64,000 nt of DNA from an uncultured Anaerolineales bacterium (GCA_964348195.1 CAYGBX010000001.1:15148-79147), one strand, 5' to 3'. Counted from the stretch's first letter, positions 1,836 to 25,355 are shown. Program-made: numbers and translations. Notes: generated from the letters alone by a model not told the origin.

Positions 1836-1838
1836 CGC

Positions 1839-9500: not shown

Positions 9501-12500
9501 GCCCCACCGCCTCCTCCAACGCAGAAAGCGCTTCGTCGAGATCTCCCTGGGCGCGACACACTCGGGCATACCCGCGATGGTGCCTCGTGTCAGCGGGATC
9601 CAGGGACATCGCTTGCCGGTACCGCTCGCGGGCCTGCTCTGTCTCTCCCTGCTCCTCGAAGGCCTGGCCCAGCAGATGTTGGGCCTCGGCGTCCGAGGGA
9701 TCGGTGGCGAGTGCGCATTCCAATGCCTCCCTGGCCTCGTCCGTTTGACCGGCCCGGAGCAGAACGCGTCCCTTGCGCCGGAGATGTCCCGGCTCCTCCG
9801 GCTCCACGCGGATCGCCTCCTCGTACTCGCGCAGCGACTCCTCCAACCGACCCTCTGCCTCCAGGATCTCTCCGATCCGGGCGTGGATGGCGGCCGATCC
9901 ACCATTCCCCGCCCCGAGAGCCCTGCGCAGGGCTTCCAGGGCCTTTGTCGCATCGCCCATCTTTTGGAGCAGGGATCCCGCGGCCAGAGGAAGCTCGCCG
10001 TCGTCCGGCGCCAGCTCTATGGCACGCTGATACGCCTCCAGGGCCTCGCCGTACTCCTCTCGGCCCTCGGCGACCGCGCCCCAGAGTCGCAGAGTGAGGG
10101 CGTCGGTGGGGTCGAGCGTCAGTGTCCGCTCCAACGCGGCGCGAGCTTCGTTGAGCCGTCCCATCTGCAGGCTGACCGCTGCCAACCCCCGCTGATGAGC
10201 CGGATCCTCAGGAGCGAGACGAATGGCGCGCCGGTAGCTCCCTAGCGCCGCGTCCAGTCTTCCATCCGCCTTCTGGATCTCGCCCAGAAGTGCGTGTCCC
10301 GTCGCCAGGTCCTTCCCCAGGGAGATTGCTTCGCGAGCCGCGGCCTCCGCCTCCTCCAGACGCGACATTCGCAAGAGCAGCCTTGACAGAGCCAGCCGGT
10401 GCACAGCAGCCTCTGGATCCAGCTCGATCGCGTGACGCAGGGCCCTCAAAGCGCGCGAGCCCTCCCCCTGAGAGGCGTAGGCGATTCCCAGCTCGCGCTG
10501 GATCTCCCCCCGCTCCGGAGCGAGCCGAGCGGCTTCCTCAAGCTCTGCCGTGGCCGCGTCTCCGCGACCGAGCTCCTGAAGTCCGGCCGCCAGATGGGCG
10601 CGTATCTCCGCATTGCCCGGGTCCATGTCCCGGGCCTTCAGATAGGCTTCGACCGCCTCCTCAAGGTCGCCTCTCGCCGCGTGAATCCTCGCGTGCTCGT
10701 GGTGGACGGATGCCAGGCCTGGGCCCAGATCCAGGGCACTGGAGATGGTGGACAGCGCTTCGTCCAGCCGCTTCAGGCCACGCAGCGCCTCCGCTTCCAG
10801 CACCAGGAAGCCTGGCTCCCCGGGAGCCATCTCGCGGCCGCGACGACACCAGCCCAACGCCTCGTCAAAGCGATTGAGCACGAGATGGACCCGGGCCAGT
10901 CCCGCAAGCGGTGCCGGTCCCAAAGGATCCTGCGCGTGCGCCTGCTCCAGGGCGGCCAACGCCTCGCTGCCGCGGCCAGCCACGATCAGCGCCATTCCCA
11001 AGTGGAGATGCCCGTGGGCGTTCTCCGGCTCCAGGCGGCTCGCCTCTCGATAGGACTCTACAGCCTGGGAGGATCGGCCTTGGGCGGCGAAAACCGCTCC
11101 CTGGACGCGGTGGGCCTCAGCGAATTGCGGGGCTCCCTCCACGGCGCGCTCGGCGAACCGAGCCGCCTCATCGAGCTCCCCCTGCTCAGACAAGACCCGG
11201 GCCAAGCCAACTTGATACAGGGGCTCGTCGGGATCCTGGCCGGCGGCCTGCTCATAGGCGCCCTTCGCCTCCTCCAGCCAACCCTGGCCTTCGTAGGCCC
11301 GAGCCAGTTCGTTGAGCACCGAAGGGTCGGAGTCGTCTTGAGATCGGGCCCTCTCGAGGAACTCCCGTGCCTCTTCGAACCGGCCCATCTCGTTGAGCAC
11401 CCGACCCACACTCGCAAGGTAACGAGCTTCCTCTGCCTGCAGGGCCGCGGCGCGGCGGAAGGCCTGGAGCGCCTCGGCCATTCGCCCTTCCGCCTCGTAG
11501 GCAAGCCCAAGCTGATGGTGGGTGTCCACGTAGGCTGTGCCAGCCGCGGCCACGGCTCCTTCCAGCTCCTCCACGGCCTGGGCGTGCTGATCCATCTGCT
11601 GCAGAACCAGCCCGCGGTTGCGCCGCCGGAAGAGCTCTTCGGTGCGAACCCCGGATGGATCCTTCTCCCAGGAGCCCAGATCGAGGGACCCTTCCTCCAG
11701 GCTTCTCTCCAGTAGAATCGCGGCCGCCCGATGGCAACCCTCCTGCTTGAGAAGCCTCCCCAGCCGATAGGCGGTGGCCCCATCCACGGCGGGGCCGGAG
11801 GCGGAGAGAAGGTCGGTGACCTTGCCCACCTGGCCCTCGGGCGGCTCGTTGTCGGCAATGCTGCGGGCAGCGAGCCGGAGGGAGGCCTCGTCTCCCTTGA
11901 CGAGCAGGGCTTGAAGGTAGGCCAGAGGATCCGGAGCGAAGGCGTAGCCTTGGACGACGGCGCCCTCGGCCATGGGTTCCCTGCTGAGGGCGGCGACTCG
12001 CTCCCAGCCACCGCTTCTTCCCAGGGCCTGTCCCGCGAAGTGCTCTAGCACGAGCGGATCCAGAAACGCCACCGCCCCTCGCCCGCGCCGGACCAGAAGG
12101 CCAGTCGCCAGAATCCGCTCCAGGAGAGCACCAGCACCTCGGCCGTCCGCGGAAACCTCTTCGAAGCGCTCGAGCCAGGCCTCCCGTGGCGCGTGGTTGC
12201 GGCCCTCCGCGAGCAGGCCAACGGCAGCCGTCTCCAGCGCCGCGTCAGCCCCCTCTGGCATCTCCTGCACCAATCGCTCGACAGCGGTGGAGATCACGTC
12301 GCCCGGCCTCCACCAGCGGCGAACAGCGTCCGATTCCCGCGCCAGCTCGACCAGCGCCGACAGGAAGAGGGGGGAATGGACCAAGTTCCAGAGGTCTGGC
12401 CGCCGGCGCAGCCGCTCCTCAACCTCCTGTGCCAGAGGCCGCTCCAGCCGCTGCGCAAGGTAGCGGCGAACGTCGTCGTCGGAGAGGGGCAGGATCTCCC

Positions 12501-13071
12501 AGGTGGAGATCTCGCCCAGCCAGCGCCGATATATAGAGAAGTCCGCGCTTCGGCAGGCTACCACCGCACGCTGATCTCGGAGGGTGGTACCGACCAACCG
12601 TTCGATCTCCTCCAGAGCATAGTGGCTGGTGATGCGATCCAGGTTGTCGAGCAGCAGGGTCACGTAGCCCCGTCCGAGGAGGGAGCTGAGAGCCGAACGC
12701 TCCATGTCGGGATCGCCCAGAGAGGCGGCGATTCGCTCGCGGATGCCATCCCCTTCCTCCATGGGCGCCAGGTCCACCAGCAGAGGCACGGGACGATCCC
12801 GCTCTCCCGGCATGGCGTCCTCCGCCAAGACGGTCACCAAGTGTTCCAAGAAGACCGTCTTGCCTGCCCCCGGTCCGCCGAGCACCACGGCTCGGCCCGC
12901 ATCCAGGATCGCCCGGGTGGCGTCCGGGGCGGGACTGTCCGCGAGGGGTCGCGTCAGCCGAGGTGGGATGTAGGGGCCGCCAGCACCTCCGGAGCGCTCC
13001 TGCACCCCGGCCAGATGCCGGCGCAGGACCGCCAGGCCCGAAGGGGCGGCCCCTTCATTGCGTTCCGCCAT
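6535..13071 (-). CDS. STAND-class NTPase (NACHT/AAA-like) fused to a ~1800-aa TPR array
   Basis: 2178 aa. Walker A VVLGGPGAGKTVFLEHL, Walker B VTLLLDNLD, sensor-1-like VVACRSADF, then winged-helix-like region. From about residue 400 to the C-terminus there are uninterrupted TPRs (dozens of A-x-x-x-Y/F...A-L-x-L-x-P units). SD GGGGAGG 4 nt upstream of the ATG. No N-terminal effector domain. Confidence 0.85.
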   Translation of the reverse strand: MAERNEGAAPSGLAVLRRHLAGVQERSGGAGGPYIPPRLTRPLADSPAPDATRAILDAGRAVVLGGPGAGKTVFLEHLVTVLAEDAMPGERDRPVPLLVDLAPMEEGDGIRERIAASLGDPDMERSALSSLLGRGYVTLLLDNLDRITSHYALEEIERLVGTTLRDQRAVVACRSADFSIYRRWLGEISTWEILPLSDDDVRRYLAQRLERPLAQEVEERLRRRPDLWNLVHSPLFLSALVELARESDAVRRWWRPGDVISTAVERLVQEMPEGADAALETAAVGLLAEGRNHAPREAWLERFEEVSADGRGAGALLERILATGLLVRRGRGAVAFLDPLVLEHFAGQALGRSGGWERVAALSREPMAEGAVVQGYAFAPDPLAYLQALLVKGDEASLRLAARSIADNEPPEGQVGKVTDLLSASGPAVDGATAYRLGRLLKQEGCHRAAAILLERSLEEGSLDLGSWEKDPSGVRTEELFRRRNRGLVLQQMDQHAQAVEELEGAVAAAGTAYVDTHHQLGLAYEAEGRMAEALQAFRRAAALQAEEARYLASVGRVLNEMGRFEEAREFLERARSQDDSDPSVLNELARAYEGQGWLEEAKGAYEQAAGQDPDEPLYQVGLARVLSEQGELDEAARFAERAVEGAPQFAEAHRVQGAVFAAQGRSSQAVESYREASRLEPENAHGHLHLGMALIVAGRGSEALAALEQAHAQDPLGPAPLAGLARVHLVLNRFDEALGWCRRGREMAPGEPGFLVLEAEALRGLKRLDEALSTISSALDLGPGLASVHHEHARIHAARGDLEEAVEAYLKARDMDPGNAEIRAHLAAGLQELGRGDAATAELEEAARLAPERGEIQRELGIAYASQGEGSRALRALRHAIELDPEAAVHRLALSRLLLRMSRLEEAEAAAREAISLGKDLATGHALLGEIQKADGRLDAALGSYRRAIRLAPEDPAHQRGLAAVSLQMGRLNEARAALERTLTLDPTDALTLRLWGAVAEGREEYGEALEAYQRAIELAPDDGELPLAAGSLLQKMGDATKALEALRRALGAGNGGSAAIHARIGEILEAEGRLEESLREYEEAIRVEPEEPGHLRRKGRVLLRAGQTDEAREALECALATDPSDAEAQHLLGQAFEEQGETEQARERYRQAMSLDPADTRHHRGYARVCRAQGDLDEALSALEEAVGRKQGGAELQFELANLYQAADRMEEALSAGRRAIAQAPDEPRYLQWMGRTLLDLGRGEEAVAALEEAVALNPHDPALRETLGEGFESNGWHPEALEAYQGAGESLFLDPSHLGRMSRVLDQMGRVDEAEASLERARSTDSDDPQAHLNLARILEERGDLAAALDEVAKAERIAPEESTVHLARGNLLSALGRREEAEEALATAVALDSEPVEALLGLGRLQEAMGKLEEARSSYRKAASLQPRSAEPHLALSALERQLGREAQAATVLERAIANLPGSAPLHHRLGQLYREAGRWDAARTQFEEAVACDGKDAIHHRDLGALLLEREHAEEATVALERALEMDSADPEALYLLGRAREKAGQVEQALGFYQRALDLIPHDAQIREALGGALLASGRALEAVHVLEPLATEEGTDPRATFRLGQAYEGAGRLEDAQRLYDEASRLAPHDPTYVLRLGAVERALGKASENGASDHWYAKAAGSLQAALDLKPNWAEAYSELGLLNAAQGDGDKAERLCQKSVDLEPGSPERRRALGSVYRQLGRYEDARRELEAAHSLAPDEAETHYQLGRIHEALGEHDRALSAFRAAVDRSDHDGRYLHALSGTLESAGDHEEAMEAMERAVAAGPGVARWRAVLGGLYERAGRHQSAFEQYRKAVELAPRAAEFHRAAASALSHMRRWDKAVEHLEEAVRLDPNDLRARSALGAAYQEVGRNSDSADAYRRALETQPQDPTLWLGLGVALEGMGRFEEAIACFEEALSLGGAKAASYAHLGHLQEKRGDLEQALAHYQRASDLEPQDPAYPHRVAEVLHRQGDYHAALEALDEATSRDPQYAPAYISRARTYLDQDRFDDALEAYHKALRAAPEEKAYHSEVGALCRRLGHTDKAVAHFRKMAELDPASGQAHSELGRTHEEQGNYDRALREFLLACQTEPGEADHHFRAGLLYKRLKQYSESAEMFREAVRLDPKNANAFKQLAATTALAWVHGGGS

Positions 13072-13081
13072 GGGCCCTCCC

Positions 13082-13426
13082 CTAGAGCCCCGTGGTGAGC
13101 CAGAAGGCGACTATGCTGATGGTGACACCCGCGACCGTGAGGAAGGCACCGATACCGGCAGCGGTACGGATCAGCCGGTTGATGGCTTCCACCAGGTTGG
13201 AAGCGGAGTCGATGATTGGCGCCACGGCATCCTGCGTGACGGCCCGGCCACTGATCTTTATGGACTGAGCCGAGAGGTGCTTCATGGCGCTGTGGTACTC
13301 CTTGGACAGGATGATCCACAGACCGGAGACGGTGCAGACCACCCCGATCAGGAACAGGATCACCGCCATCCCGACCTCGAGGTCAGCGGCTGGCATTGGG
13401 ACCTCCTTTCGCGATCCGCACGGCAC
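13082..13426 (-). CDS. Small membrane protein (2 predicted TM helices), unknown function
   Basis: 114-aa ORF. Hydrophobic MAVILFLIGVVCTVSGLWIIL and GIGAFLTVAGVTISIVAFWLTTGL flank a ~60-aa soluble segment. The ORF-track start overlaps the receiver gene by 44 nt. The true start is probably internal (Met at 13396 or GTG/ATG near 13370). Confidence 0.5.
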   Translation of the reverse strand: MPCGSRKEVPMPAADLEVGMAVILFLIGVVCTVSGLWIILSKEYHSAMKHLSAQSIKISGRAVTQDAVAPIIDSASNLVEAINRLIRTAAGIGAFLTVAGVTISIVAFWLTTGL

Positions 13427-13811
13427 GGCGGACCAGCTGCTTCATCTCCTCCATCTCGAAGGGCTTGCTGACATAGGCAGAGACTCCGACGCGTTCCGCC
13501 TCCGCCTCCACATCGCTGCATCCATAGGCGGTCATGAGAATGGCCTGGGTTCTGGTCTGGAGCCCTCGGGCGGCGCGCAGCAATTGGATCCCGCTCAGGC
13601 CAGGCATCCTCAGGTCGGCGATGATCACGTCCGGCTGCCTCTCAGCTACCGCCTCCAGCGCGTCCTCGCCTGAATGGCGAACCTCAACCTCGTACCCCGG
13701 CTCCTCCTCCAGCGCGCTGCGCAGGAAGTGGGCCAGGGTTCGCTCGTCCTCAGCGATGAGGATTCGGGAGGTTCGTGCGTCTACCCTTTTCTGCGTGATC
13801 GCGGTCGCCAC
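13383..13811 (-). CDS. Single-domain response regulator (CheY-like receiver)
   Basis: 142 aa. RILIAEDE, phospho-acceptor IIADLRMPG, LMTAYG, SKPF. GTG start with GAGG SD 8 nt upstream. First gene downstream of the sigma-54 promoters. Confidence 0.8.
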   Translation of the reverse strand: MATAITQKRVDARTSRILIAEDERTLAHFLRSALEEEPGYEVEVRHSGEDALEAVAERQPDVIIADLRMPGLSGIQLLRAARGLQTRTQAILMTAYGCSDVEAEAERVGVSAYVSKPFEMEEMKQLVRRAVRIAKGGPNASR

Positions 13812-13836
13812 TCAAGTTCCTCTACATGAGATACTC

Positions 13837-13852
13837 GCAAGATCCGTGCCAG
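13837..13852 (-). promoter_or_regulatory. Sigma-54 (RpoN) -24/-12 promoter, proximal copy (P2), transcribing toward 13811
   Basis: Minus-strand reading of 13837-13852 = CTGGCACGGATCTTGC. TGGCACG-N4-TTGC matches consensus spacing and bases exactly. -12 C at ~13837, predicted TSS ~13825, 14 nt before the GTG start. Confidence 0.6.
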
Positions 13853-13896
13853 CCCCCTGCCGACCGAGATGGGGCGGGCTCCACGATTGGGGAGCA

Positions 13897-13912
13897 GCAA
13901 GATCCGTGCCTG
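13897..13912 (-). promoter_or_regulatory. Sigma-54 -24/-12 promoter, distal copy (P1)
   Basis: Minus-strand reading = CAGGCACGGATCTTGCT. Identical 14-nt core GGCACGGATCTTGC exactly 60 bp upstream of P2, -12 TTGCT. Confidence 0.55.
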
Positions 13913-14000
13913 ACAGGCCCGATTCAGGCGTGGAGAGAGCGCCCGACTGCTCCTCGGCGGCTCCCGGATCGACTACCGCGGTTCGGTGAGACGGGGTGAC

Positions 14001-14035
14001 ACTGGGGGGACTTCCCCAACTGGGGGAAATCCCCC
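14001..14035. promoter_or_regulatory. Candidate enhancer (UAS) for the adjacent sigma-54 activator: two adjacent imperfect dyads
   Basis: ACTGGGGGGACTTCCCC (14001-14017) and ACTGGGGGAAATCCCCC (14019-14035). Both are TGGGGG-N2-3-CCCCCA dyads, 18 bp centre to centre, ~100-130 bp upstream of the sigma-54 -24 elements and ~150 bp from the end of the bEBP gene. Confidence 0.35.
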
Positions 14036-14187
14036 ATCAGAAGAGGGATCGGCGCGCAACAGGAGCTGTGTGCCAGCGCCGGCTGGACGGACGAGGGCAG
14101 CGAGCCAGGACGCGTTCAGAGAGCTGTGCTAGCCGAAGGTGGAGTACGTGATCCGGGGCCCGCGGTGGATGAGGACGCGAGGAGAGG

Positions 14188-15561
14188 CTACTTCAGGCCG
14201 TACTTCGAAAGGGAGTAGCGGAGGACGTCGCGGGTGACGCCCAGGAGGCGGGCAGCCTCGCTCTGGTTTCCGCCGGTCCGCTCCAGCGCCTGGGCGATCA
14301 TCCGCCTTTCGAACTCGGCGACCGTCCCCTTCAGATCGATGCCCGCATCGTCGAGGGTCGCCTCAAGCGACGGGGCCAGAGGCAAGAAGGCCCTGTCGGT
14401 AACGATCTCTCCGGGCAGGTGAGCCGGCTGAATCTCATCGCCGTCGCAGAGGATGACCGCGCGCTCCATCACGTTTCTCAGCTCTCGGACGTTGCCGGGC
14501 CAGTCGTACCTGCGAAGGAGCTCCATCGCCTCCTCTGAGACCCCGGTCACGTTCTTTCCCATGGCCTCTGCGTACTCGGCCAGGAAAGTCAAGACCATAG
14601 GGTCGACATCGCCCGGTCGGTCGCGAAGCGGCGGCACCTCGATCACGACCACCCCAAGCCGGTAGTAGAGATCCTCGCGAAACTCCCCCGAATCCATGGC
14701 GGCTCTCAGGTCCCGGTTGCTGGCGGAAACGACCCGGATGTCCACCTGGATGTCACGCTCGCCCCCTACCCGACGGAAGGACTCGGTCTCCAGCACCCGG
14801 AGCAGCTTGGCCTGCAGATCCGGCCTCATACTCCCGATCTCGTCCAGAAACAGTGTCCCGCCGTCGGCCGTCTCCAGCAGCCCTTTCTTCTGTCGCTTGG
14901 CGTCGGTGAAGGCGCCGCGTTCGTGGCCGAACAGCTCGCTCTCAAGGAGGGTGTCCGGGATCGCCGCGCAGTTGATGGCCACAAAGGGACCATCGGCGCG
15001 GTCGCTCTGACGATAGAGGGCGCGGGCGATGACCTCCTTGCCCGTGCCGCTTTCCCCCTGGATCAGCACGCTGGCCTTGCTGGCCGCAAGCCGCGCCACG
15101 AGCCTCTCTATCTCTCGCATAGCCGGGCTGTCACCGATGACCCAGGGACGATCCCCATCGCCCCGGCCCCGCAGCCGGGCAAGCTCTTCGCGCAGGGCAC
15201 GCGACTCCAGGGCGCGCGCGATCGTCAGCTTGAGATCATCAAGATCGGGGGGCTTCTCAAGATAGTCATAGACCTTGAGCCGCATGGCCTCCACGGCGCT
15301 GCCAACCGATCCGTACCCTGTCATCATGATCACCGGCAATTCGGCATCGCCGGCACGGATGGCCCGGAGCACCTCCATCCCCTCCACATCGGGCAGCTTG
15401 AGGTCGAGGAGGACCAGGTCGATCTCGCGCTGTCCTACGGCCTCCAATCCCTCCCGGCCCGTCCCCGCCGCGACTACCTCGTAGCCCTCCTCGAGGAGGG
15501 ACTCCCTGAGGAAATGGCTGAGGGTGGACTCGTCCTCGACGATCAGGATGGTGCGACTCAC
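14188..15561 (-). CDS. Sigma-54-dependent transcriptional activator (NtrC/Fis family bEBP: REC + AAA+ sigma-54 interaction + Fis HTH)
   Basis: 457 aa. Receiver ILIVEDE...LVLLDLKLPDVEG. AAA+ VLIQGESGTGKE, GAFTDA (GAFTGA variant), ELFGHERGAFTDA, VRELRN. C-terminal Fis-type HTH QSEAARLLGVTRDVLRYSL. Confidence 0.9.
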   Translation of the reverse strand: MSRTILIVEDESTLSHFLRESLLEEGYEVVAAGTGREGLEAVGQREIDLVLLDLKLPDVEGMEVLRAIRAGDAELPVIMMTGYGSVGSAVEAMRLKVYDYLEKPPDLDDLKLTIARALESRALREELARLRGRGDGDRPWVIGDSPAMREIERLVARLAASKASVLIQGESGTGKEVIARALYRQSDRADGPFVAINCAAIPDTLLESELFGHERGAFTDAKRQKKGLLETADGGTLFLDEIGSMRPDLQAKLLRVLETESFRRVGGERDIQVDIRVVSASNRDLRAAMDSGEFREDLYYRLGVVVIEVPPLRDRPGDVDPMVLTFLAEYAEAMGKNVTGVSEEAMELLRRYDWPGNVRELRNVMERAVILCDGDEIQPAHLPGEIVTDRAFLPLAPSLEATLDDAGIDLKGTVAEFERRMIAQALERTGGNQSEAARLLGVTRDVLRYSLSKYGLK

Positions 15562-15567
15562 CTTACC

Positions 15568-17625
15568 CTACCCTCCCAGTGGGATTCGGACGACGAATGC
15601 CGTGGCCCCCATTGGGTCACTCTCGGCCTGGATTTCGCCTCCATGGGCTTCGATGATCCTGCGGGCCACCGCCAGGCCCAGAGGGGCTCCCGCCTCCACC
15701 GAGAATCCCGATTCACTGCCATCGGAGGAGCCAGAGGCCGCCCCGGCAGCCTGGTCCCGTCGAATCTCGATCTCGGCGTACCCGTCCCCGTCGGCAGGGT
15801 CGCTCACGGCCGAAGCAGTGATCGATCCCGATCCAGACTGGCCAGCGATGAGAGCAAGAAGAAGGTGGCGAAAGGCCCGCTGGAGCGCATCGGGGTCGCC
15901 CTGGACTGCCTTGAGGTCACGGCCCAGGTGTGTCTCGATCCCCGAGCCGCGGGCCTCGGCCTGCGAGCGACAGGCCTCGACGGCTGCGTGGAGGGTCTGC
16001 CCGAGGTCGGTGGGCACCGGCTGCAACCTCACCGGGCGCGACAAGAGGAGGAGCTCGTCGATCACCCGCTTCACCCGCAGGCTCTCCTGGAGGATCATCT
16101 GCAGCCCTTCGTGGCCCTCATCATCGGGATCGCTCTGCCCCGCGAGGTGCTGGATCCCGGTTACGATGCCAGCCAGGGGGTTCCGGATCTCGTGAGCCAC
16201 GGTCGCCGAGATCGCTTCCAAGGCCGAGCCGTAGCCCGCGCGCTCCCGAACACGCTCCAGTCTGGCCTCCTCTTCCAGGTCGTGGAGCACGACCACTGAT
16301 CCGGATCCAAACTCTGCATCCCAGAGGTGAAGGGACACCCTCAGCCGCCTGTCTCCTATCTCGAGTTCCTCCCACCACGGCGCCCAGCGCGCGGCTCCGT
16401 CATCCGGGGCGCCAAGGGTCTCCGACCCCAGCAGCGCGGCCAGCGAACGGCCGACGAGGCGGGAGGGGTTCCCCAGAAACCGCTCCGCCCTCCGGCTGGC
16501 CACGACGACCCGTCCTTCTCCGTCGAGCACCAACGCGGCAAGGGGCAATGAGCGCCAGGCCTCCTGCCGCAACCGACCCCGCACCTCCAGTCTCCGGCTC
16601 GCCCGCCGACGCGCCTCGCTCTTGTACCGGGTGAGGCCGGCCCCCAGCCGGCGGCCGAAGCCAACCAACTCCTCGAGGTGGCCGGGGGTGAGCGCCTGGG
16701 CCGGGTGGCCCACCACCAGCAGCACCCCGAGGAGTTGGCCGTTGCCTGAGACGGGTATCAGCGCGCCGGTTCCCACTCCGGGAGCTTTCGAGACCACGCT
16801 CCAGTACCAGGGATCCGCCGAATCCTCCTCCAGCAGGATCGGCCCGGCCTCCTCCCGGAGCCGCTCCACCAGGCCGTAGCCGGAATGAAGCCGGCGGCTC
16901 GCCCGCTCCTCGAAGGAGGCCGAGGGGAACAAGCGATGGTCGACAAGCCGGTACTCATCGCGGGCGGCATCGAGCAGGAACACGGCCGCGCGGCCGACTG
17001 GAGGAAGGTCCAGCGCCGCCTGCAACCCCGCTGCCACAGCTTCCTCCGTGCTATCTGCGGTGAGCAGGCGGAGGGTGAGGTTGTCGAGGCGAATCAGAGA
17101 CTCCCAGCGGCGCTGAGTGGCCCGTGCCTTCTGGGATTCGCGCCGTCCGCGGGACGCCGGGTCCAAGTCAGCGGAGATCTCAATCTCGGTCCCGGTTCCT
17201 TCCTGCTTGTCGGAGAGCTCCGGGCCATCGGGCGAACGGACGGTCCCGGACCAAGTCCTGCTCCCGGACGGCAGGGCACGGGAGACAGCGGCCCGAAGCA
17301 TCGAGGGATCGACCGGCTTCTCCAGGTAGTCGGCGGCGCCCAGCCTCATGGCCTTCACTGCATCTCCCACCGAGCCGGGACCGATCATCAGCACGCCGGG
17401 ACCATCCCTGCCTTCGGCGCGAATCGTCCGCAGCAGCTCAAGCCCATCGCCATCGGGCAGCTCCGTTTCGATGAGGACCAGGTCCACAGACTCGCGGGCC
17501 AGAGTTCCGAGTCCCTCCTGACCGGTGCGCGACCAGAGCACCTCGTACCCCTCCTCTTCCAGAGCCTGGCGGAGGAAGAAGCTTGTCGCTTCTTCCGCAT
17601 CGATGAGCAGAACCTGCTGGGCCAT
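15568..17625 (-). CDS. Hybrid sensor histidine kinase with N-terminal receiver (REC-GAF/PAS-HisKA-HATPase)
   Basis: 685 aa. N-terminal REC (LLIDAEE...LVLIETELPDGDG...YLEKP), central sensory region, H-box ATVAHEIRNPLAGI, C-terminal ATP-binding G-box. Stop is 6 nt before the bEBP start. Confidence 0.85.
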   Translation of the reverse strand: MAQQVLLIDAEEATSFFLRQALEEEGYEVLWSRTGQEGLGTLARESVDLVLIETELPDGDGLELLRTIRAEGRDGPGVLMIGPGSVGDAVKAMRLGAADYLEKPVDPSMLRAAVSRALPSGSRTWSGTVRSPDGPELSDKQEGTGTEIEISADLDPASRGRRESQKARATQRRWESLIRLDNLTLRLLTADSTEEAVAAGLQAALDLPPVGRAAVFLLDAARDEYRLVDHRLFPSASFEERASRRLHSGYGLVERLREEAGPILLEEDSADPWYWSVVSKAPGVGTGALIPVSGNGQLLGVLLVVGHPAQALTPGHLEELVGFGRRLGAGLTRYKSEARRRASRRLEVRGRLRQEAWRSLPLAALVLDGEGRVVVASRRAERFLGNPSRLVGRSLAALLGSETLGAPDDGAARWAPWWEELEIGDRRLRVSLHLWDAEFGSGSVVVLHDLEEEARLERVRERAGYGSALEAISATVAHEIRNPLAGIVTGIQHLAGQSDPDDEGHEGLQMILQESLRVKRVIDELLLLSRPVRLQPVPTDLGQTLHAAVEACRSQAEARGSGIETHLGRDLKAVQGDPDALQRAFRHLLLALIAGQSGSGSITASAVSDPADGDGYAEIEIRRDQAAGAASGSSDGSESGFSVEAGAPLGLAVARRIIEAHGGEIQAESDPMGATAFVVRIPLGG

Positions 17626-17626
17626 C

Positions 17627-20503
17627 CTAGCCTTCCAGCGGCAAGTTCACGGTGAAGGTCGTTCCGGCGTCCAGCTCGCTCTCCACGGAGATCTCGCCGC
17701 CGTGCTCTTCCACGATACGACGCACGATCGCGAGCCCGAGGCCGGTTCCCCCCGGCTTGGTGGTGAAGAATGGCTCGAAGATCTGTCCCAGGTCGCGGTC
17801 CGCGATCCCCTCACCGCTGTCCCCTACAGTGACCACGGCCCTATCGCCCTCAGGAGAGACGCTGGTGCGCACTTCGAGCCGTCCTCCATCGGGCATCGCC
17901 TCCAGCCCGTTCTGGAGAAGGTTGGAAAAGGCCTGCTCCAGGCGCGCTTCGTCCCCGCGCAGAGGAGGAAGCTCTGGATCTCGGTCCCAGCGGACGGCGA
18001 CGCCCCGCTCTTCGGCCTGCGGCTCCAGACGGCGGAGCGCCCGCCCCATCACCTCAGAGATGTCGCTGGGCGCAAGTTTCAGTCTCACCGGACGCGAGAT
18101 GATCAGGATCTCCTCGATGATCCGGTTCACCCGGTCGCTCTCCTCGAGGATCATCTGCAGGCTGTCGTGTGAGGGGGCTTCGGGTCCGGTGGTCGCGACC
18201 AAGTGCTGGATGCCGGCAGCGATGGCGGCCAGAGGGTTTCGCACCTCATGGGCCACGACGGCACTCATCTCTCCCAACAGGGCCAGCCTGTCCAGCCGCC
18301 GTCGCTCGGCCTCCATGGCCCGGGCCTCGCTGAGATCCCGCACGACGACCACCCCGCCCCGCACGGCCCCCTTCTCCCCCTGGAGGGGACTGATGCTGGC
18401 TGCCAAGGGCACTATTCCGCCGCCCCGCTTCGGAACCTCGATCTCCCGAGGCGTGACGATCATCCCGCGTTCCAAGCTCTCGCGGACCATGACGGACGCA
18501 TCACCCAGCACCTCGTCGACGGCCTCTCCTTCCAGATCTCCCTCCTTGTATCCGAGCATCCGTCCCGCGGCGCGGTTGGCCAAGGTCACCTGTCCCGCCG
18601 GGTCGACCACCAGGATTCCGTCGGTCATGCTCTGCAGGATCGATTCGTTGAACTGCCGGACTGCCGACAGCTCTTCCACTGCCGTCTCCAACCGTCGGAA
18701 GAGCTGAGCGTTCTCCACCGCCACGCCGATCTGCTTGCCGAGGGCCTCCAACAGCCTTTGATCGTCGGGGGTGAAGCGATGGAGCGTGCGCCGGTACAGA
18801 TTGAGCACTCCCAGAACTTGGCCTTTGGCCTGGAGGGGGACGGCCACCAGAGAACCGAAACCGCCCCGGGGGGGACGCATTCCCTCCAGGAGGGGATCCG
18901 CGGCCAGGTCGCTCACGGCTACCACGCGGTTCCTCTCCACCACCTCCTTGGCCAGGGAGACGCCCACCTTGGAGTCGGAGCTGGGCTCGACCAATCCCAC
19001 CTGGACCGCCTGACGAAAGCCCGAACCCCTGTCCGTAGGAAGGTAGATCTCTCCCGCGTCCATCCTGGTCAGCGAAAGCGAATGGTCCAAGGCCTGGCCG
19101 AGCACGCCCTCAAGGTCCACCGTCCGGGACAGAGCCGCAGCGATGGCGTTGATGCCTGCCAGGTCTTGACTGCGCTCCACCAACTCCCGCCGCATGGCCT
19201 CGGCCTCTGTGACGTCCCGCAGGATGCACTGGATCACCTGGCGACCGTCCGACGAAACCATGTGGGCGCTCAGGTCGACCGCTATGTTCTCCCCGTCCTT
19301 GCGTACCAGAGCGACATCGCTGGCCGACCCGGCGCCAGACAGAACGGCAGCCTGAAGTCCCTCCATGGCGCGGCGGCGGTCCTTCATCGAAAGAAGCTGA
19401 CCGAGATCCATCGTGAGGAGCTCACCTCGTGGGTACCCAGTCAGCCGCTCCGCTCGGCGGTTGGCCTCGAGCAGGCTGCCGTCGGCCGGGCTGATGGTCA
19501 TGAGGGCGTCGTATCCACCTTCGATGAGCTTCCGGTAGCGATCCTCCAGGCTGGCCAGCGCCGCCTCTCCGGTTCGGACCTCACGCCGAAGTCCTCGGGT
19601 CCACGCCAAGAAGGCGCCCGCCGACAGAAGCACCCCAACGAGGAAGGCCAGCCCGGCCCCAATCAATCCACTGGCGGACGGGCCAGCCGCCTCCTGGACA
19701 GGCGTCCCGAACCAGCGCGCTTCGAGGCGAGCCAGCTCGCCCCTCTCTTGGAGGACGGACAACGCTCCGTCCAGAATCGGCAAGAGGGCAGCCAGGTTCT
19801 CAGGGAGCGCTGCGGTGTAGCTGAGGGAAGCCACTTCGGGCCCGACGATAAGAGCCTCCTCTCCCTCGTCTTGCTCCAGCAGGTAGCGGATCGCCTGGAC
19901 ATCGCCCAAGAAAGCTGCCGCTTGACCCTGCCGGACGGCAGCGAGCCCCTCGGCGGGTCCCGCGACAGGGAGGGAAATGGCTCCCGAGCCCTGCAGTTCA
20001 TTCAGTCCCGGCCCCGACCTGCGGACCGCCACGACCTCGCCCCCGAGGGAGGCCAGCGTGAGCTCGCCCTCGCGTTCTGCGGCGAAGGCGAGGTTCAGGG
20101 CGCTCGACAGATAGGGCTCGGTGACGAGGAGTCCCTCGACCTGAGACTCCGTGCTCACGAAGCCGAGGGCGGCATCCGCCCCGCCCTCGAGGATGAGACC
20201 TAGGCCATCATCAACTGGGAGCAGAAGCACTTCCACGCCGAGAAGAGAAGCCAGCGCGTCCCCCAACTCGCGCTCGAACCCTCGGTAGATGCCATCGCCC
20301 TCGCGAAAACCGAACGGCGGATTCCGACTCGAGGTGGCAAGCCGGACGGTCCCTCGGTCAGAGAGGAGTTGGCGAGAATCGGGGTCCAGGAAGGACGGGC
20401 CTCCGGCGCCGATTTGAAACAGCGCAAAGATGGCCAACAGCAGGAGGGCACCTCCACCCAGAACGAGCAACCCTCGCCTGCTAAGAAGACCCAGGTCCGG
20501 CAT
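17627..20503 (-). CDS. Membrane sensor histidine kinase with extracytoplasmic solute-binding (SBP_bac_3-like) domain, PAS-GAF-PAS, HisKA, HATPase
   Basis: 958 aa. N-terminal TM, periplasmic-type binding-fold motifs (RLATSSRNPPFGF, ...YRGFERELGDALASLLGV), second TM (LIGAGLAFLVGVLLSAGAFLAW), H-box AVVAHEVRNPLAAI, GTGLGLAIVRRIVEEHGGEI. Confidence 0.85.
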   Translation of the reverse strand: MPDLGLLSRRGLLVLGGGALLLLAIFALFQIGAGGPSFLDPDSRQLLSDRGTVRLATSSRNPPFGFREGDGIYRGFERELGDALASLLGVEVLLLPVDDGLGLILEGGADAALGFVSTESQVEGLLVTEPYLSSALNLAFAAEREGELTLASLGGEVVAVRRSGPGLNELQGSGAISLPVAGPAEGLAAVRQGQAAAFLGDVQAIRYLLEQDEGEEALIVGPEVASLSYTAALPENLAALLPILDGALSVLQERGELARLEARWFGTPVQEAAGPSASGLIGAGLAFLVGVLLSAGAFLAWTRGLRREVRTGEAALASLEDRYRKLIEGGYDALMTISPADGSLLEANRRAERLTGYPRGELLTMDLGQLLSMKDRRRAMEGLQAAVLSGAGSASDVALVRKDGENIAVDLSAHMVSSDGRQVIQCILRDVTEAEAMRRELVERSQDLAGINAIAAALSRTVDLEGVLGQALDHSLSLTRMDAGEIYLPTDRGSGFRQAVQVGLVEPSSDSKVGVSLAKEVVERNRVVAVSDLAADPLLEGMRPPRGGFGSLVAVPLQAKGQVLGVLNLYRRTLHRFTPDDQRLLEALGKQIGVAVENAQLFRRLETAVEELSAVRQFNESILQSMTDGILVVDPAGQVTLANRAAGRMLGYKEGDLEGEAVDEVLGDASVMVRESLERGMIVTPREIEVPKRGGGIVPLAASISPLQGEKGAVRGGVVVVRDLSEARAMEAERRRLDRLALLGEMSAVVAHEVRNPLAAIAAGIQHLVATTGPEAPSHDSLQMILEESDRVNRIIEEILIISRPVRLKLAPSDISEVMGRALRRLEPQAEERGVAVRWDRDPELPPLRGDEARLEQAFSNLLQNGLEAMPDGGRLEVRTSVSPEGDRAVVTVGDSGEGIADRDLGQIFEPFFTTKPGGTGLGLAIVRRIVEEHGGEISVESELDAGTTFTVNLPLEG

Positions 20504-20511
20504 TCCTCTCC

Positions 20512-21990
20512 TCAGGCCGGAGCGTGCGGGCCGCGGGAGGAGAGCACGCCGTCGCTCTCCGTCAGGCGGCGGAGGGGTGCAGGGAGGATCCCCATGGCCT
20601 CCCGGTACTTCGCCACGGTTCTCCGAGAGATCTCGAACCCCGCCTCGGCCAAGCGATCGGAGATCTGTCCATCGCTCAGGGGCTGGGTCTCAGCAGCTAC
20701 CAGTCCCCGGATCGCCTCCTTGGCCGGAAGGCTGCCATCGAAGAAGTCAGAAACGGGGACGATTCGCTCATCGGGGAGCTGGGCGAACTTGTCGGCCAGG
20801 GCCCGGCTGACCGTGGACTCGTGCAGGTCGAGCCAATCGGCCAATTCGGCCCTGGTCAGGGGCCTCAGATGACCAGCCCCTGATCGGAGAAAGTCAGATT
20901 GGTGCTCAACCAGTGCCTCTGCCACCCGACGAAGGGTTCGCCACCGTCGTCGGAAGGCATCCAGGAAGAGCCGGGCGCGGCCGACCTGTCCCTGAATGTG
21001 AGCTTGATCGGGATCCTGGTCCTCATCCTCGGCCTGGAGGAGCTCGCGATACAGCCTCTGTATCCGGAATCGGTACCGGTGCTCGTCCGGCAACTCGACT
21101 CGGAACCCATCGCCTTCGGGAGCCGCCTGGATGATCAGATCGGGACGCACGAAGGCCGGCCCCTCACCGGCCATCCCACGAGAACCCCGACTGTAGGCAT
21201 GGGCCGGATAGGGATTGAGGCTCTGGTGGAGGTAGCGGAGGGCCGCGATCACCTGTTCCTCCGAGGCGCCGGAGGTCTCGGCAAGCCGGTCCAGCCTGCC
21301 ATCGGCCAGCATCTCCCAGTGATCGGCCACGATCGATCGGGCCAGGGGTGCGTGCTCCCCCGCACGGCCCCGCAGCTGAATCAGAAGGCACTCCCTGACG
21401 TCGCGGGCCCCGACGCCCGAGGGATCCTGCTCCTGAAGGACGGCGAGAACTCGTTCCACGCTGGATGGAGAAGCTCCCGCCCAATCGGCGATCTCGTCCA
21501 CAGATGCGTCCAAGAATCCGTGTCCGTCGAGACTTCCCACGAGGACCCGAGCGATCGGATGGTCAGAAGATTCCAGCGCCGACTCCAGCTGGCGCAGGAG
21601 ATGCTCAGACAGGGAGACCCCGGCCGAAACACGCTCCCAAGGATCCCAATCGCCCCGGTCATCCTCGGGATCGAAGCTGCCTGAGCGGGATCTGGACAGT
21701 CCCTGTCTCAGCGCGTCGGCGAGGGTGCGATTCTCCCCGGCACAGATAGGGCAGCGCTCGCCGGAGGTGAGTGCCCCGCAGTCGGCACAGCGAGCCTCGT
21801 CCACCAGCTCGAGTGCGGGATTCTCCTCCAGCTCCTGGGCGACCGCCTGTTCCAGGTCCAACGCGCCCCACTGGAGGAGTTGGCCGGACAGGACCAGCTC
21901 TGGGCTAACATCCAAGCGGGGCTCAAGGGTCTGGCGGGGCTTTATCACGGCTCCGGGGTTCCCGCCTCCAGGGTGCGGACTCTTCCCCAA
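20512..21990 (-). CDS. rpoN: RNA polymerase sigma-54 factor RpoN, with CxxC...CxxC zinc-ribbon in place of region II
   Basis: 492 aa. RpoN box ARRTVAKYREAMGIL at the C-terminus. Region I-like QTLEPRLDVSPELVLSGQLLQW...ELEENPALE followed by RCADCGALTSGERCPICAGE. Core-binding and HTH regions present. Track start is TTG. A GTG 14 codons downstream is an alternative. Confidence 0.9.
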   Translation of the reverse strand: MGKSPHPGGGNPGAVIKPRQTLEPRLDVSPELVLSGQLLQWGALDLEQAVAQELEENPALELVDEARCADCGALTSGERCPICAGENRTLADALRQGLSRSRSGSFDPEDDRGDWDPWERVSAGVSLSEHLLRQLESALESSDHPIARVLVGSLDGHGFLDASVDEIADWAGASPSSVERVLAVLQEQDPSGVGARDVRECLLIQLRGRAGEHAPLARSIVADHWEMLADGRLDRLAETSGASEEQVIAALRYLHQSLNPYPAHAYSRGSRGMAGEGPAFVRPDLIIQAAPEGDGFRVELPDEHRYRFRIQRLYRELLQAEDEDQDPDQAHIQGQVGRARLFLDAFRRRWRTLRRVAEALVEHQSDFLRSGAGHLRPLTRAELADWLDLHESTVSRALADKFAQLPDERIVPVSDFFDGSLPAKEAIRGLVAAETQPLSDGQISDRLAEAGFEISRRTVAKYREAMGILPAPLRRLTESDGVLSSRGPHAPA

Positions 21991-22065
21991 CCCAGTCAGA
22001 GGACCGAGTGAGGAATTTTCCCCAGAATGCTAGCACACCCCCCTGGAGGTGTCAAAACGCGGTGC

Positions 22066-23868
22066 CTAGGAGTCCGGCGGGGGAAGCCCTTTCCGCTCCA
22101 GAAGCTCCGGACTCAGTCCGAAGGCCAATCCTTCTTCCCAACTGAAGTGCTCGGCCAGGGCCTGCTCCGGGTACAGGAGGCTGATCGCCTCGTACCAGCG
22201 CAGCCCCTCCATGAAGTTGTAGTGCCAGTACTCTCGGCCAAGAGTGTCGCACTTCCAGTTGAAGTCGGCTTGCTCGTAGGCGGCGATACGCTGCCAGCCG
22301 AACCGCGTGGCCAGCTCGGTGAAGTCTAGGTAGTAGCCTTGGGGTATCGGCTTGGGTCGGCCGCCTTCGCCATCGGGATCGCAGACCCGGCTGAAGTGGA
22401 ACCACCACTGCCATGGCGCGCTCTTGAGCGGCTCTCCCATCGAGCCGTCCTGGGACCGGACCCGGATGAGGATACGCCAGTAGGTCTCCGATCCGATGTC
22501 CTCCCGGACGACCTCCAGCCGGTCCCCTCCCTCCCCCTCCCGGAGCTCAAACAGAAGGTCCACGGCCCGGCCTGTCTTGTGCCAGCTCAGGTAGCTGTAC
22601 CGGGTGCGGTGGAAGTCGGGGGGTCGGAAGGCGTCGCTGAGGGTGCCCAGGTAGTCGTACCCAGATCGCTCCAGCACGACCTCCCGCAGACCGAAGAAGG
22701 CCTCCGCCGCCGTCTGATACAACCGAAACGGCCCCGCCGGGTCGCCGAAGAGGGAGACCAGCCCTCGGGAGCCATTCTGAGGTTCCCCTGTCCCTTCGGT
22801 CCCAGGCGTTTCCGGAAGCTGCGAGCCAGCCTCGGAAAAGTCGGCATGCTGTGCCCAGGCTGGCGGCATCACGGGGACCTCGGTCGGTGTCGGGTGTTCC
22901 TGGTCACCGGGGACCTGTAGCACGCCCAGCGTTTCTCCAGCAGAATCACCCCACGTCAGGTTCCAGTGACCGTCCCGGAACTCGTGGTACACCTCGAAGG
23001 GTTCCCCCTTGTCGTATTCCGCGTAGATCAACCCGCCGCCGGGCAGCCAGGCCGGCGCCCGCTGGCCCACGTCATCAGACGTTATCCGCGCCAGGTCGCC
23101 CGACTCCAGATCCAGAGAGTAGACCTCTCCGATTCCGTCCCGAGTTGAGATGAACGCCAGGCGCCGACCATCCAGGGACCAGCTGGGATCTTCGTCGTCC
23201 GCTGGGTGGTCTGTGACGTTTCGCAGCGATCCGGCCTCAAGATCCAGTACATAGATCTCTTTGTCGCCGTCGCGCCATGAGGTGAAGGCCAGATTGGAGC
23301 CGTCGGGCGACCAGGAAGGACCATAGTCCCCGGCCGGGTCATCGGTCAGACGGGTCAACTCCCCCGTGGCCAGGCCGATTTGGTATAGATTGAGATTCCC
23401 ATCGCGGTATGACTCGAAAGCGATTCGGTCACCCTCCGGGGCCCAGGCCGGGCTGCCGTCGTAGTGGATCTCTTCGGTCAGGCGGGAGATCGCCCCTGTG
23501 TCCATCTCCAAGAGGTAGATGTCCCAGTTCCCATCTCTGTGCGACTCGAAGGCCACGGTCCGTCCATCGGGGGACCACGCTGGGTTTCGATCCTCGGCCT
23601 CATGAGCTGTCAGATTCCAGGCTTCATCCGACCCGAGCCAGCCCAGGAGGATCTCCCAGTTCCCGGCTTGGTTCGATTGGTAGACGAGCGCCCGGGCAGG
23701 CTCCGGAGTGGGAGGCTCGGGGGAGGGTTCGGGAACCGGACTCGGCGTGCTGGGCACGCGGGTGATTGGGTTGACGGTAGGGGTGCAAGCCCACAGCACC
23801 AAGCCAGCCACCAGAAGCAGCACGGACTGGGCGCGGGCTAGAAGCATGCAGGGGCGGGCGGCTCCCAA
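22066..23868 (-). CDS. Secreted/lipoprotein TolB-like beta-propeller (PD40/WD40-like repeats) with unknown C-terminal domain
   Basis: 600 aa. Signal peptide plus LWAC lipobox-like. Repeated NPAWSPDGRTVAFES / DGSPAWAPEGDRIAFES / YGPSWSPDGSNLAFTS / EDPSWSLDGRRLAFIS PD40 units. C-terminal ~250 aa W/Y-rich domain not recognised. Confidence 0.7.
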   Translation of the reverse strand: MGAARPCMLLARAQSVLLLVAGLVLWACTPTVNPITRVPSTPSPVPEPSPEPPTPEPARALVYQSNQAGNWEILLGWLGSDEAWNLTAHEAEDRNPAWSPDGRTVAFESHRDGNWDIYLLEMDTGAISRLTEEIHYDGSPAWAPEGDRIAFESYRDGNLNLYQIGLATGELTRLTDDPAGDYGPSWSPDGSNLAFTSWRDGDKEIYVLDLEAGSLRNVTDHPADDEDPSWSLDGRRLAFISTRDGIGEVYSLDLESGDLARITSDDVGQRAPAWLPGGGLIYAEYDKGEPFEVYHEFRDGHWNLTWGDSAGETLGVLQVPGDQEHPTPTEVPVMPPAWAQHADFSEAGSQLPETPGTEGTGEPQNGSRGLVSLFGDPAGPFRLYQTAAEAFFGLREVVLERSGYDYLGTLSDAFRPPDFHRTRYSYLSWHKTGRAVDLLFELREGEGGDRLEVVREDIGSETYWRILIRVRSQDGSMGEPLKSAPWQWWFHFSRVCDPDGEGGRPKPIPQGYYLDFTELATRFGWQRIAAYEQADFNWKCDTLGREYWHYNFMEGLRWYEAISLLYPEQALAEHFSWEEGLAFGLSPELLERKGLPPPDS

Positions 23869-25334: not shown

Positions 25335-25355
25335 GGCTAGGTCCGTCGCTCCAAG

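Follow-up and report, generated by a model that had tools for sequence, protein, structure and literature searches.

We analyzed a 64,000-nucleotide (nt) stretch of DNA from an uncultured Anaerolineales bacterium (GCA_964348195.1 CAYGBX010000001.1:15148-79147), hereafter "the window", in which the gene for sigma-54 (rpoN) heads a cluster of regulatory genes. Positions are counted from the first letter of the window, and related or control loci from other assemblies are referred to by L numbers. Pfam and NCBIfam scans placed rpoN, two histidine kinase genes (HK1 and HK2) and the gene for a bacterial enhancer-binding protein (bEBP) in this order, all on the minus strand. Product lengths are in amino acids (aa).

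20512-21948, minus strand: rpoN, encoding sigma-54 (478 aa), identified by Pfam, NCBIfam and an exact 478-aa database match.
17627-20503, minus strand: HK1 (958 aa), with SBP_bac_3 followed by PAS-GAF-PAS-HisKA-HATPase_c (Pfam).
15568-17625, minus strand: HK2 (685 aa), with REC-GAF-PAS-HisKA-HATPase_c (Pfam).
14188-15561, minus strand: bEBP (457 aa), with REC, Sigma54_activat and HTH_8 (Pfam).
22027-22055, minus strand: putative sigma-70-type promoter upstream of rpoN, TTGACA-17-TAGCAT with a TG-extended -10, called as a consensus match.

An earlier reading made from the sequence alone (the sequence-only reading) had described a four-gene operon with gaps of 6-8 nt. The genes, strand, order and domains stood, but the gaps are 8, 1 and 6 nt; a purine-rich stretch resembling a ribosome-binding site precedes each. 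The same reading had extended rpoN to a TTG at 21990, which was replaced by a GTG start at 21948 on the basis of the exact 478-aa match and agreement with the N-termini of orthologues. Its domain assignments for the four genes, including the amino-acid-binding-like sensor domain, agree with Pfam and NCBIfam. All three sigma-54 domains (AID, CBD and DBD; PF00309, PF04963 and PF04552) scored above their cut-offs, TIGR02395 matched the rpoN product at 286.8 bits (cut-off 277.35), and the RpoN box reads RRTVAKYRE.

In HK1, the SBP_bac_3 domain occupies residues 54-266 and is flanked by two hydrophobic segments. The kinase boxes are all intact, reading AHEVRNPL (H), NLLQNGLEA (N), DSGEGI (G1), FEPFFTTK (F) and GTGLGL (G2), and HATPase_c scored 107 bits in Pfam. 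The solved structures nearest to the sensor domain are His-, Glu-, Gln- and Arg-binding proteins, GlnH and BvgS VFT2; by this likeness, the ligand is probably amino-acid-like. The bEBP matched Sigma54_activat (PF00158) at 238 bits as well as PF00072 and PF02954, its translation contains the Walker motifs GESGTGKE and LFLDEIG, and its receiver keeps the phospho-Asp (LLDLKLPD). Its nearest NCBIfam likeness is to AtoC/NtrC and that of the kinase cores to AtoS/ZraS, with all scores under the equivalog cut-offs. No other bEBP is encoded within the 64-kb window.

The putative sigma-70-type promoter has 10/12 matches to consensus and is the sole such site in 12900-22300. Counting the window, nine loci have TTGACA-17(TGn)-TAnnnT 78-108 nt upstream of rpoN, and inspection of L095 by eye revealed TTGACT-17-TAGAAT upstream of its rpoN. 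A terminator scan found no terminator-like site at any gene boundary of the region; of its two matches, one falls within HK1 and the other, on the opposite strand, within bEBP. We infer from the sequence that rpoN, HK1, HK2 and bEBP are co-transcribed. The most distant locus that carries the cassette, L129, has a perfect sigma-54 promoter (TGGCATAGAACTTGCA, 5319-5334) 62 nt upstream of rpoN, which suggests positive autoregulation of rpoN there, unlike the window and its clade with their sigma-70-type promoter.

The 376-nt spacer 3' of the bEBP gene contains two sigma-54 promoters and a set of candidate activator sites:

13896-13911, minus strand: distal sigma-54 promoter AGGCACGGATCTTGCT (-24/-12), 85 nt upstream of the receiver gene described below.
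13836-13851, minus strand: proximal sigma-54 promoter TGGCACGGATCTTGCG (-24/-12), 25 nt upstream of the receiver gene.
14003-14035, minus strand: candidate activator-binding repeats GGGGGATTTCCCCCAGTTGGGGAAGTCCCCCCAG, of WTTTTCCNCA type.

Both promoters carry the exact 14-mer GGCACGGATCTTGC, 60 nt apart and with unrelated flanks. By simple arithmetic, chance alone would put a second copy of this 14-mer into a 376-nt spacer about 3e-6 times. Across the whole window, the degenerate sigma-54 pattern was found 5 times versus 2.35 expected, and 9/100 shuffles reached 5, which is not significant. The case for the promoters therefore rests on position, on the exact repeat and on conservation in relatives. 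At the equivalent site, 33/37 loci have TGGCAC-N5-TTGCA with at least 10/11 consensus positions, and the spacer sequence around it diverges among loci. The conserved promoter is usually 16-51 nt upstream of the receiver gene or, where that gene is missing, 46-95 nt upstream of the gene for a small membrane protein. The clade's own form of the sigma-54 promoter is TGGCACGnnTCTTGCA. The GGCACGGATCTTGC core is single in all 36 related loci, so the tandem arrangement is specific to this genome or its closest relatives. The sequence-only reading had placed sigma-54 promoters directly downstream of the cassette, and the two -24/-12 elements with their equivalents in relatives bear this out. Three further sigma-54-like sites in the window (17021, 27632 and 30985), each with one mismatch and each inside or at the start of an open reading frame (ORF), were treated as chance matches; the last of these (30985-31000, CGGCATGGGGGTTGCT) is a weak site at the junction of an amidotransferase gene and a PGA_cap gene.

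Repeats of the WTTTTCCNCA type were found in 16/18 loci, with 1-4 pattern matches each, 160-300 nt upstream of the promoter. They are about 15-fold over background; because the motif was derived post hoc from the same sequences, this enrichment is indicative only. A second conserved element, an AT-rich palindrome of CCACTAGATCTAGTAG type, often in two copies, was noticed ~110-170 nt upstream of the sigma-54 promoter in relatives (L101 at ~9310-9330, L099, L102, L103, L106-L109, L114, L115, L118 and L130). A related form is present in L091, L096 and L097, and no obvious copy was noticed in the window. This zone is where integration host factor sites lie in proteobacterial promoters. When the 376-nt spacer was folded as RNA, it gave z = -0.76, no sign of a structured leader, and an Rfam scan of the window returned no family at gathering score.

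The sigma-54 contact loop of the bEBP (~14899-14916) reads GAFTDA rather than GAFTGA, so that Phe and Thr are kept and Gly5 is replaced by Asp. GAFTDA occurs in 19 loci and GSFTDA in one, all within the clade that has HK2, and GAFTGA occurs in 8 basal loci. The list of Francke et al. accepts GAFTEA as a position-5 variant, and GAFTDA is not in the portion of that list consulted.

The genes facing the promoters are separated by gaps of at most 16 nt from the receiver through MraZ:

13383-13811, minus strand: stand-alone receiver (sREC), the first target gene, with Asp, Thr and Lys intact.
13082-13396, minus strand: conserved 104-aa membrane protein with two hydrophobic segments, 71% identical to its counterpart in L091 and 41% to that in L095.
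6535-13071, minus strand: NACHT-TPR STAND NTPase (2178 aa), with NACHT (PF05729) at residues 62-209 scoring 36 bits against a cut-off of 26.7.
4231-6534, minus strand: TPR protein with a Peptidase_C25 domain (clan CD, caspase fold; Pfam).
2860-4221, minus strand: conserved 453-aa protein with no family match, whose orthologues directly follow the C25 gene in 9 loci and come after it in most lineages.
1839-2875, minus strand: 191-aa coiled-coil protein (weak DivIVA similarity) and MraZ, tightly abutting the operon.

The NACHT protein contains a Walker A motif (GGPGAGKT), a Walker B-like motif (LLLDNLD) and a TPR array matched at E = 1e-181. All 7 orthologues of the C25 protein compared keep FNLHG and EACYG unchanged, which agrees with a His/Cys dyad. 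By motifs and domains, these two genes form a STAND NTPase plus clan CD protease module. The putative effector operon of the sequence-only reading was thus recovered, with the receiver, membrane protein, NACHT-TPR NTPase and C25 peptidase directly after the promoters. Both the HK2 clade and the L121/L123/L125 group have sREC, which basal loci lack. PADLOC models matched the giant protein only with generic TPR models and repeat-region hits (PrimPol, PDC-M71B), gave weak hits only for the receiver (SduA, PDC-M60B), and gave none for the C25, membrane or 453-aa proteins. A PEP-CTERM PrsK/PrsR/PrsT system was considered and rejected: PEP_resp_reg scored 421 bits versus 502.6, and PrsT matched only over a TPR stretch (27.8 versus 312). 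The secreted protein encoded after MraZ, which runs off the window, was judged Amidase_2/PGRP-like by reading its translation, not by hidden Markov model. The neighbor of mraZ is thus an amidase-like gene in the window (1-2300) and directly ftsZ in L095 (19863-21378), not rsmH. Both the mraZ-amidase and the mraZ-ftsZ orders are unusual for a division cluster.

To follow the linkage of these genes across relatives, the 104-aa membrane protein, the marker most specific for the target operon, was used in a metagenome scan, which recovered 35 loci with proteins 31-71% identical to the query. All 10 marker loci with enough upstream flank carry rpoN, a kinase and a bEBP upstream. Adding the window, L091 and L095, rpoN-kinase-bEBP precedes the same target operon in 13/13 loci. 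An HK1 orthologue directly follows rpoN in every Anaerolineae-type relative recovered from rpoN (L081-L091) and also in the marker loci that cover HK1 (L096, L099, L101, L106, L119, L120 and L130). On the 181-kb contig of L091, where rpoN is 48% and bEBP 65% identical to the window, the order is rpoN, HK1, HK2, bEBP, a 306-aa protein, promoter, REC, a 105-aa membrane protein, a 2155-aa giant protein and TPR/C25. L095, on a 1.83-Mb contig of an Anaerolineae metagenome-assembled genome (MAG), reads rpoN, kinase, bEBP, terminator, promoter, membrane protein, giant protein, C25, MraZ and FtsZ.

Controls were taken from among the matches listed in the rpoN genome scan and comprised 79 rpoN loci of other phyla and one Ktedonobacterales locus (L001). 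A kinase or bEBP lies directly downstream of rpoN in 0/79 of the listed other-phyla loci, and any bEBP lies within 10 kb of rpoN in just 2/79 of them. L001, whose sigma-54 is 43% identical to that of the window, has no cassette. The proposal that sigma factor, signal input, activator and output are one physically coupled unit therefore holds across the 13 related loci and in neither control. Note that many of the control loci have a feature of their own: in L002-L018, L055 and L075 (~7740-8020, minus strand), GGCAC-N5-TTGC lies ~2 kb upstream of rpoN on the opposite strand, which suggests a conserved sigma-54 promoter adjoining rpoN in many Deltaproteobacteria/Binatia.

The target promoter is most likely controlled by the linked sigma-54, kinase and activator. 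The neighborhood might instead be coincidental, with a general-purpose sigma-54, a two-component system and bEBP that regulate genes elsewhere, and downstream -24/-12 matches that arose by chance. The unremarkable window-wide count of the degenerate pattern fits such a view. However, the exact 14-mer is present twice, in the right spacer and in the right orientation, the promoter keeps its position in relatives although the sequence around it has diverged, and rpoN, kinase, bEBP and target operon stay together in every locus where all could be assessed. Coincidence is, on this evidence, barely credible.

Several observations nonetheless weigh against control of the target operon by the linked genes. 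In the window, the search for terminators came up empty between bEBP and the target operon, so read-through from the upstream promoter could contribute to expression. The promoter and activator-site calls rest on consensus and conservation. The competence of a bEBP with GAFTDA is assumed from its conservation in 20 loci. In L093 and L094, whose bEBPs are nearest to that of the window (91%), other genes come right after bEBP and the target operon was not captured. The position after bEBP is variable between relatives: in L093 (1916-5631) it holds a PCMT-type methyltransferase gene on the opposite strand, in L094 (1834-3342), from the same metagenome, an HTH_3/Gp49 toxin-antitoxin-like pair, and in L091 (11474-12394) the gene for the 306-aa protein, which has no family.

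The origin of HK2 can be read from its neighbors. Over its C-terminal ~530 residues, which comprise the GAF, PAS and kinase core, HK2 shares homology with the part of HK1 that begins near residue 421, with identities of 72% in L091, 61% in L088 and 31% in the window. The nearest relative of its receiver is the bEBP receiver of the same locus (63% identical in L091, 47.5% in the window), and in L088 the two receivers are 98% identical over the first 56 residues; identity to the stand-alone receiver is just 30-33%. These similarities extend to DNA. The 3' ends of HK1 and HK2 are 100% identical over 996 nt in L091, 98.6% in L096, 87% in L088 and 64-72% elsewhere, and the 5' ends of HK2 and bEBP reach 90%. 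HK2 sits between both parent genes and is absent from the basal loci L095, L119, L120, L122, L123 and L129. HK2 is thus a chimera of the bEBP receiver and the C-terminal half of HK1, consistent with a single tandem duplication. One such event, running from the middle of HK1 to the receiver-coding part of bEBP, accounts exactly for the HK2 gene, its position and its domain order. The duplicated segment would have included the 3' portion of HK1 together with the 5' portion of bEBP, fusing a bEBP-type receiver to the GAF-PAS-kinase half of HK1. The patchy DNA identity among HK1, HK2 and bEBP points to gene conversion after the duplication, which would have held intact HK2 genes of sister lineages similar to both parents.

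Two assemblies speak against parts of this account. L089 reads rpoN-HK1-bEBP, with HK2 not present in the assembly. We rejected L089 as a three-gene variant within the HK2 clade, since collapse is likelier given the near-identical 996-nt 3' ends of HK1 and HK2; the skip is probably a repeat collapse in assembly. Genuine three-gene loci belong to the basal lineages L095, L119, L120 and L129. The 100% repeat of L091 could in principle be an assembly artefact, and was judged real because of the 98.6% and 87% identities in L096 and L088. Among L082-L086, four independent assemblies have contigs that stop within ~30 codons of one another inside the HK1 orthologue, at residue ~620-650. We attribute these ends to the 996-nt repeat, 98.6-100% identical, that HK1 and HK2 have in common (L091 5149-9998, and L096). 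Short-read assemblies thus break or collapse at this internal repeat, and automated MAG annotation of the locus will often be wrong.

In the window, HK2 has decayed. The receiver phospho-site has changed from Asp to Glu in the window (LIETEL) and in L087 (LLEREL), the acidic pair has changed from DD to DA, and the conserved Thr to Gly; L093 has no receiver coverage. In the ATP-binding domain of the window, L087 and L093 proteins, the N-box Asn, G1 and F are gone and G2 is degenerate; in the window, the N-box Asn is replaced by Ala (HLLLALIAGQ) and G2 reads GAPLGL. The His box AHEIRNPL is kept and is the sole box left in the window HK2. HATPase_c scored 36 bits in Pfam, versus 107 for HK1. Of the other orthologues, 8/8 keep the Asp and 6/8 keep both G1 and G2 (L088, L091, L096, L099, L106 and L130); L101 and L103 each miss one box by regular expression.

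The sequence-only reading had made HK2 a REC-hybrid kinase in a phosphorelay, a role that did not survive: the window protein lacks both the ATP-binding boxes and the receiver phospho-Asp by which a hybrid kinase is recognized. It appears to be a pseudo-receiver joined to a pseudo-kinase, its His box still intact, rather than a functional hybrid kinase. A relay from HK1 through HK2 to bEBP in this genome would find some encouragement in the domain architecture, which is complete by Pfam, in the intact HEIRNPL, and in the six orthologues that retain Asp, G1 and G2. The loss of the phospho-Asp with its DA and Gly companions, of the N-box Asn, G1 and F, and of most of the HATPase_c score makes such a relay quite unlikely here. 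As a guess, the most likely role of the window HK2 would be that of a phosphatase, a scaffold or a partner in heterodimers, and not a step in a relay.

The descent of the locus was examined next to its chromosomal context. The best matches to the window sigma-54 are metagenomic proteins with 79-88% identity; the next matches are 40-52% identical, and their named members are Chloroflexi, Anaerolineae and Ktedonobacterales. The HK2 orthologue with 79% identity was found in a MAG labelled "Anaerolineae bacterium". The same chromosomal flanks recur in relatives whose rpoN products are 40-88% identical to that of the window. Upstream of rpoN (22066-31938, minus strand) is a cluster encoding a Tricorn/PD40 protein, a beta-lactamase-like protein, M23, a second PD40 protein, an M14 carboxypeptidase, an FG-GAP plus PGA_cap (CapA-like) protein and a class-I glutamine amidotransferase/C26-like protein, apparently a set for processing peptides or the cell envelope. 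The cluster is shared by relatives with rpoN ~48-88% identical, whole in L083-L085 and L089, and its rpoN-proximal genes are also in L081, L087 and L091. On the other side, mraZ lies downstream in the window, L095 and L126, and follows C25 in L095 and L126. The rest of the window is housekeeping in character (DNA ligase, Era, succinate dehydrogenase, RtcB, RibF, TruB, a DHH phosphoesterase, IF-2 and NusA). The RtcB RNA ligase gene (41561-43024) has no RtcR-type bEBP nearby. No tRNA was found in the window, Pfam scans of the larger window ORFs found no integrase or transposase, and the plasmid records that match each cover at most 8% of the cassette, with plasmid rpoN at most 34% identical. By these features, the locus is not classed as a mobile element or genomic island.

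The sigma-54 sequence itself carries a lineage mark. A Cys4 motif, CxxCG-x7-CPxC (CADCGALTSGERCPIC), occupies rpoN residues 54-69 (window 21742-21789), right after region I, in region II; the cysteines are C54, C57, C66 and C69, with a weak match to the RecR zinc finger. It is invariant in 14 Chloroflexota sigma-54 sequences and occurs in 12/12 Chloroflexota-type loci. Neither the 79 listed other-phyla loci nor the L095 sigma-54 has it, and a literature search found no paper describing it. Because the motif is common to Ktedonobacterales sigma-54, it places the window rpoN in the ordinary Chloroflexota lineage.

The sequence-only reading had taken the absence of lptB, hpf and ptsN as a sign that this is not a housekeeping rpoN. 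The conventional rpoN neighborhood is tied to diderms that bear lipopolysaccharide (LPS); only part of the Chloroflexi have sigma-54, and the phylum is probably monoderm and without LPS (PMC3162934). The argument is thus inapplicable to this phylum, and the absence of that context says nothing on whether rpoN is special. The further suggestion of horizontal mobility does not fit the conserved flanks, the housekeeping surroundings and the lack of tRNA, of integrase or transposase in the scanned ORFs, and of a plasmid counterpart. A specialized second rpoN paralogue on a mobile, self-contained cassette, with a housekeeping rpoN elsewhere, would account for a layout unlike that of the 79 listed other-phyla loci. 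It has a precedent in the rpoN paralogue co-transcribed with an activator in Xanthomonas rpoN2-vemR-fleQ (PMC6637908), and the GC content of 0.66-0.69 at 1-22 kb, slightly over the 0.62-0.66 at 22-64 kb, and the variable position after bEBP would agree with it. But the raised GC also spans mraZ and the amidase gene and is dominated by the Ala/Leu-rich TPR gene, and the flanks, the plasmid comparison and the Cys4 motif all speak for ordinary chromosomal descent. In addition, ~95% of surveyed genomes have a single rpoN (PMC12316311). We regard a mobile second paralogue as very improbable, and consider it likely that the locus is no mobile cassette but a regulatory module passed down vertically within an Anaerolineae-type lineage of Chloroflexota.

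We propose the following mechanism. The near-consensus housekeeping-type promoter would transcribe rpoN-HK1-HK2-bEBP as one unit, so that sigma-54 would be made together with the proteins needed for its activation. HK1 would sense an extracytoplasmic, probably amino-acid-like ligand through its periplasmic-binding-protein domain, and its PAS and GAF domains would read cytoplasmic cues. In the predicted phosphotransfer steps, HK1 would autophosphorylate and then phosphorylate the bEBP receiver. The bEBP would assemble on the repeats ~110-190 bp upstream of the promoters, and would remodel the sigma-54 holoenzyme at the tandem -24/-12 promoters downstream of its own gene. The output would comprise the receiver, the membrane protein, the NACHT-TPR NTPase, the TPR-C25 peptidase and two proteins without assigned role, and would run into mraZ and the cell-wall amidase gene. 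The induced receiver could plausibly act as a phosphate sink (negative feedback) or as an adaptor to the NACHT protein.

A further, more speculative step concerns the scope of this circuit. Herpetosiphon aurantiacus, the sole Chloroflexi genome with sigma-54 in a 2009 data set, has one sigma-54 and one true EBP (Francke et al. 2011 supplement). This, with the prevalence of single rpoN genes, makes a single-client sigma-54 plausible. The locus would then hold one rpoN, one bEBP and essentially one promoter, gating a NACHT-TPR NTPase and a caspase-fold protease by a division cluster (mraZ and amidase; ftsZ in L095), as a cell-death, filament-breakage or septum-remodelling program in a filamentous bacterium, with HK2 as the record of circuit growth by tandem duplication and gene conversion. 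We offer this combined picture tentatively and think it rather doubtful as a whole.

Several aspects of the locus are of wider interest. A compact, self-contained sigma-54 circuit makes the relation of input to output approachable without a large competing regulon. HK2 is a natural case of circuit growth, in which a new signalling protein was made from halves of two neighbors; its fate has differed, with gene conversion homogenizing it in some lineages and decay reducing it to a pseudo-enzyme in this genome. With an apoptosis-type NTPase/protease pair tied to a division cluster, the idea that filamentous Chloroflexota regulate a cell-fate decision becomes open to test. A literature search found no paper on sigma-54 organization in Anaerolineae or Chloroflexota. 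Usually many activators draw on sigma-54 in common, and its gene lies apart from theirs. In this case an entire class keeps the sigma gene, sensor, activator, likely binding sites, promoter and output side by side. The sigma factor has remained coupled to sensor, activator, promoter and output throughout the lineage, within the known frame of sigma-54 and two-component regulation.

Among known systems, a sigma-54 served by a single two-component-type bEBP is found in Chlamydia (PMC3162934). In Herpetosiphon, the sigma-54 and EBP genes are apparently not adjacent, judged solely from protein identifiers ~700 apart. A close arrangement is Xanthomonas rpoN2-vemR-fleQ (PMC6637908, PMC12271599), an operon that joins a sigma-54 gene to the genes for a receiver-domain protein and for the bEBP it works with, beside the genes under their control; in the window, the gaps, the promoters and the downstream operon likewise make rpoN co-operonic with a bEBP beside its likely regulated genes. 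In Xanthomonas, however, rpoN2 is a second paralogue beside a conventional rpoN1, the operon has no sensor kinase and the target is the flagellar regulon, whereas the window belongs to another phylum, and has a sensor kinase in the operon and a NACHT-TPR/C25 target. NtrB/NtrC, AtoS/AtoC and ZraS/ZraR resemble the present system in their REC-AAA+-HTH_8 activator, upstream activator sites and -24/-12 promoter. In those systems rpoN is unlinked. The window activator has the GAFTDA loop, and the window system is no orthologue of a named one. Like HK1, BvgS and Geobacter HK29S have SBP_bac_3 between two membrane segments, feeding PAS and kinase domains, and the PDB matches of the HK1 sensor include BvgS VFT2 (4q0c, 3mpk) and a "Sensor protein" (3h7m). 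Unlike BvgS-type kinases, HK1 has one flytrap domain rather than two, no receiver/Hpt extension, and a sigma-54 activator as its partner.

In operons of extracytoplasmic function (ECF) sigma factors and their anti-sigma factors, the sigma gene is co-transcribed with its gating proteins beside the target genes. The window follows the same design logic and realizes it with sigma-54 machinery, although the families and mechanism are unrelated, an ATP-driven activator standing in place of sequestration. For the output, modules of a STAND NTPase and a caspase-fold protease have reportedly been described in multicellular bacteria by Koonin and Aravind in 2002 and by Kaur et al. in 2020. The target operon resembles these in pairing a NACHT-TPR NTPase with a clan CD peptidase whose His/Cys dyad is intact. 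Such modules are typically variable and scattered. Unlike them, the target operon is syntenic across the class, abuts mraZ and has its own sigma-54 circuit.

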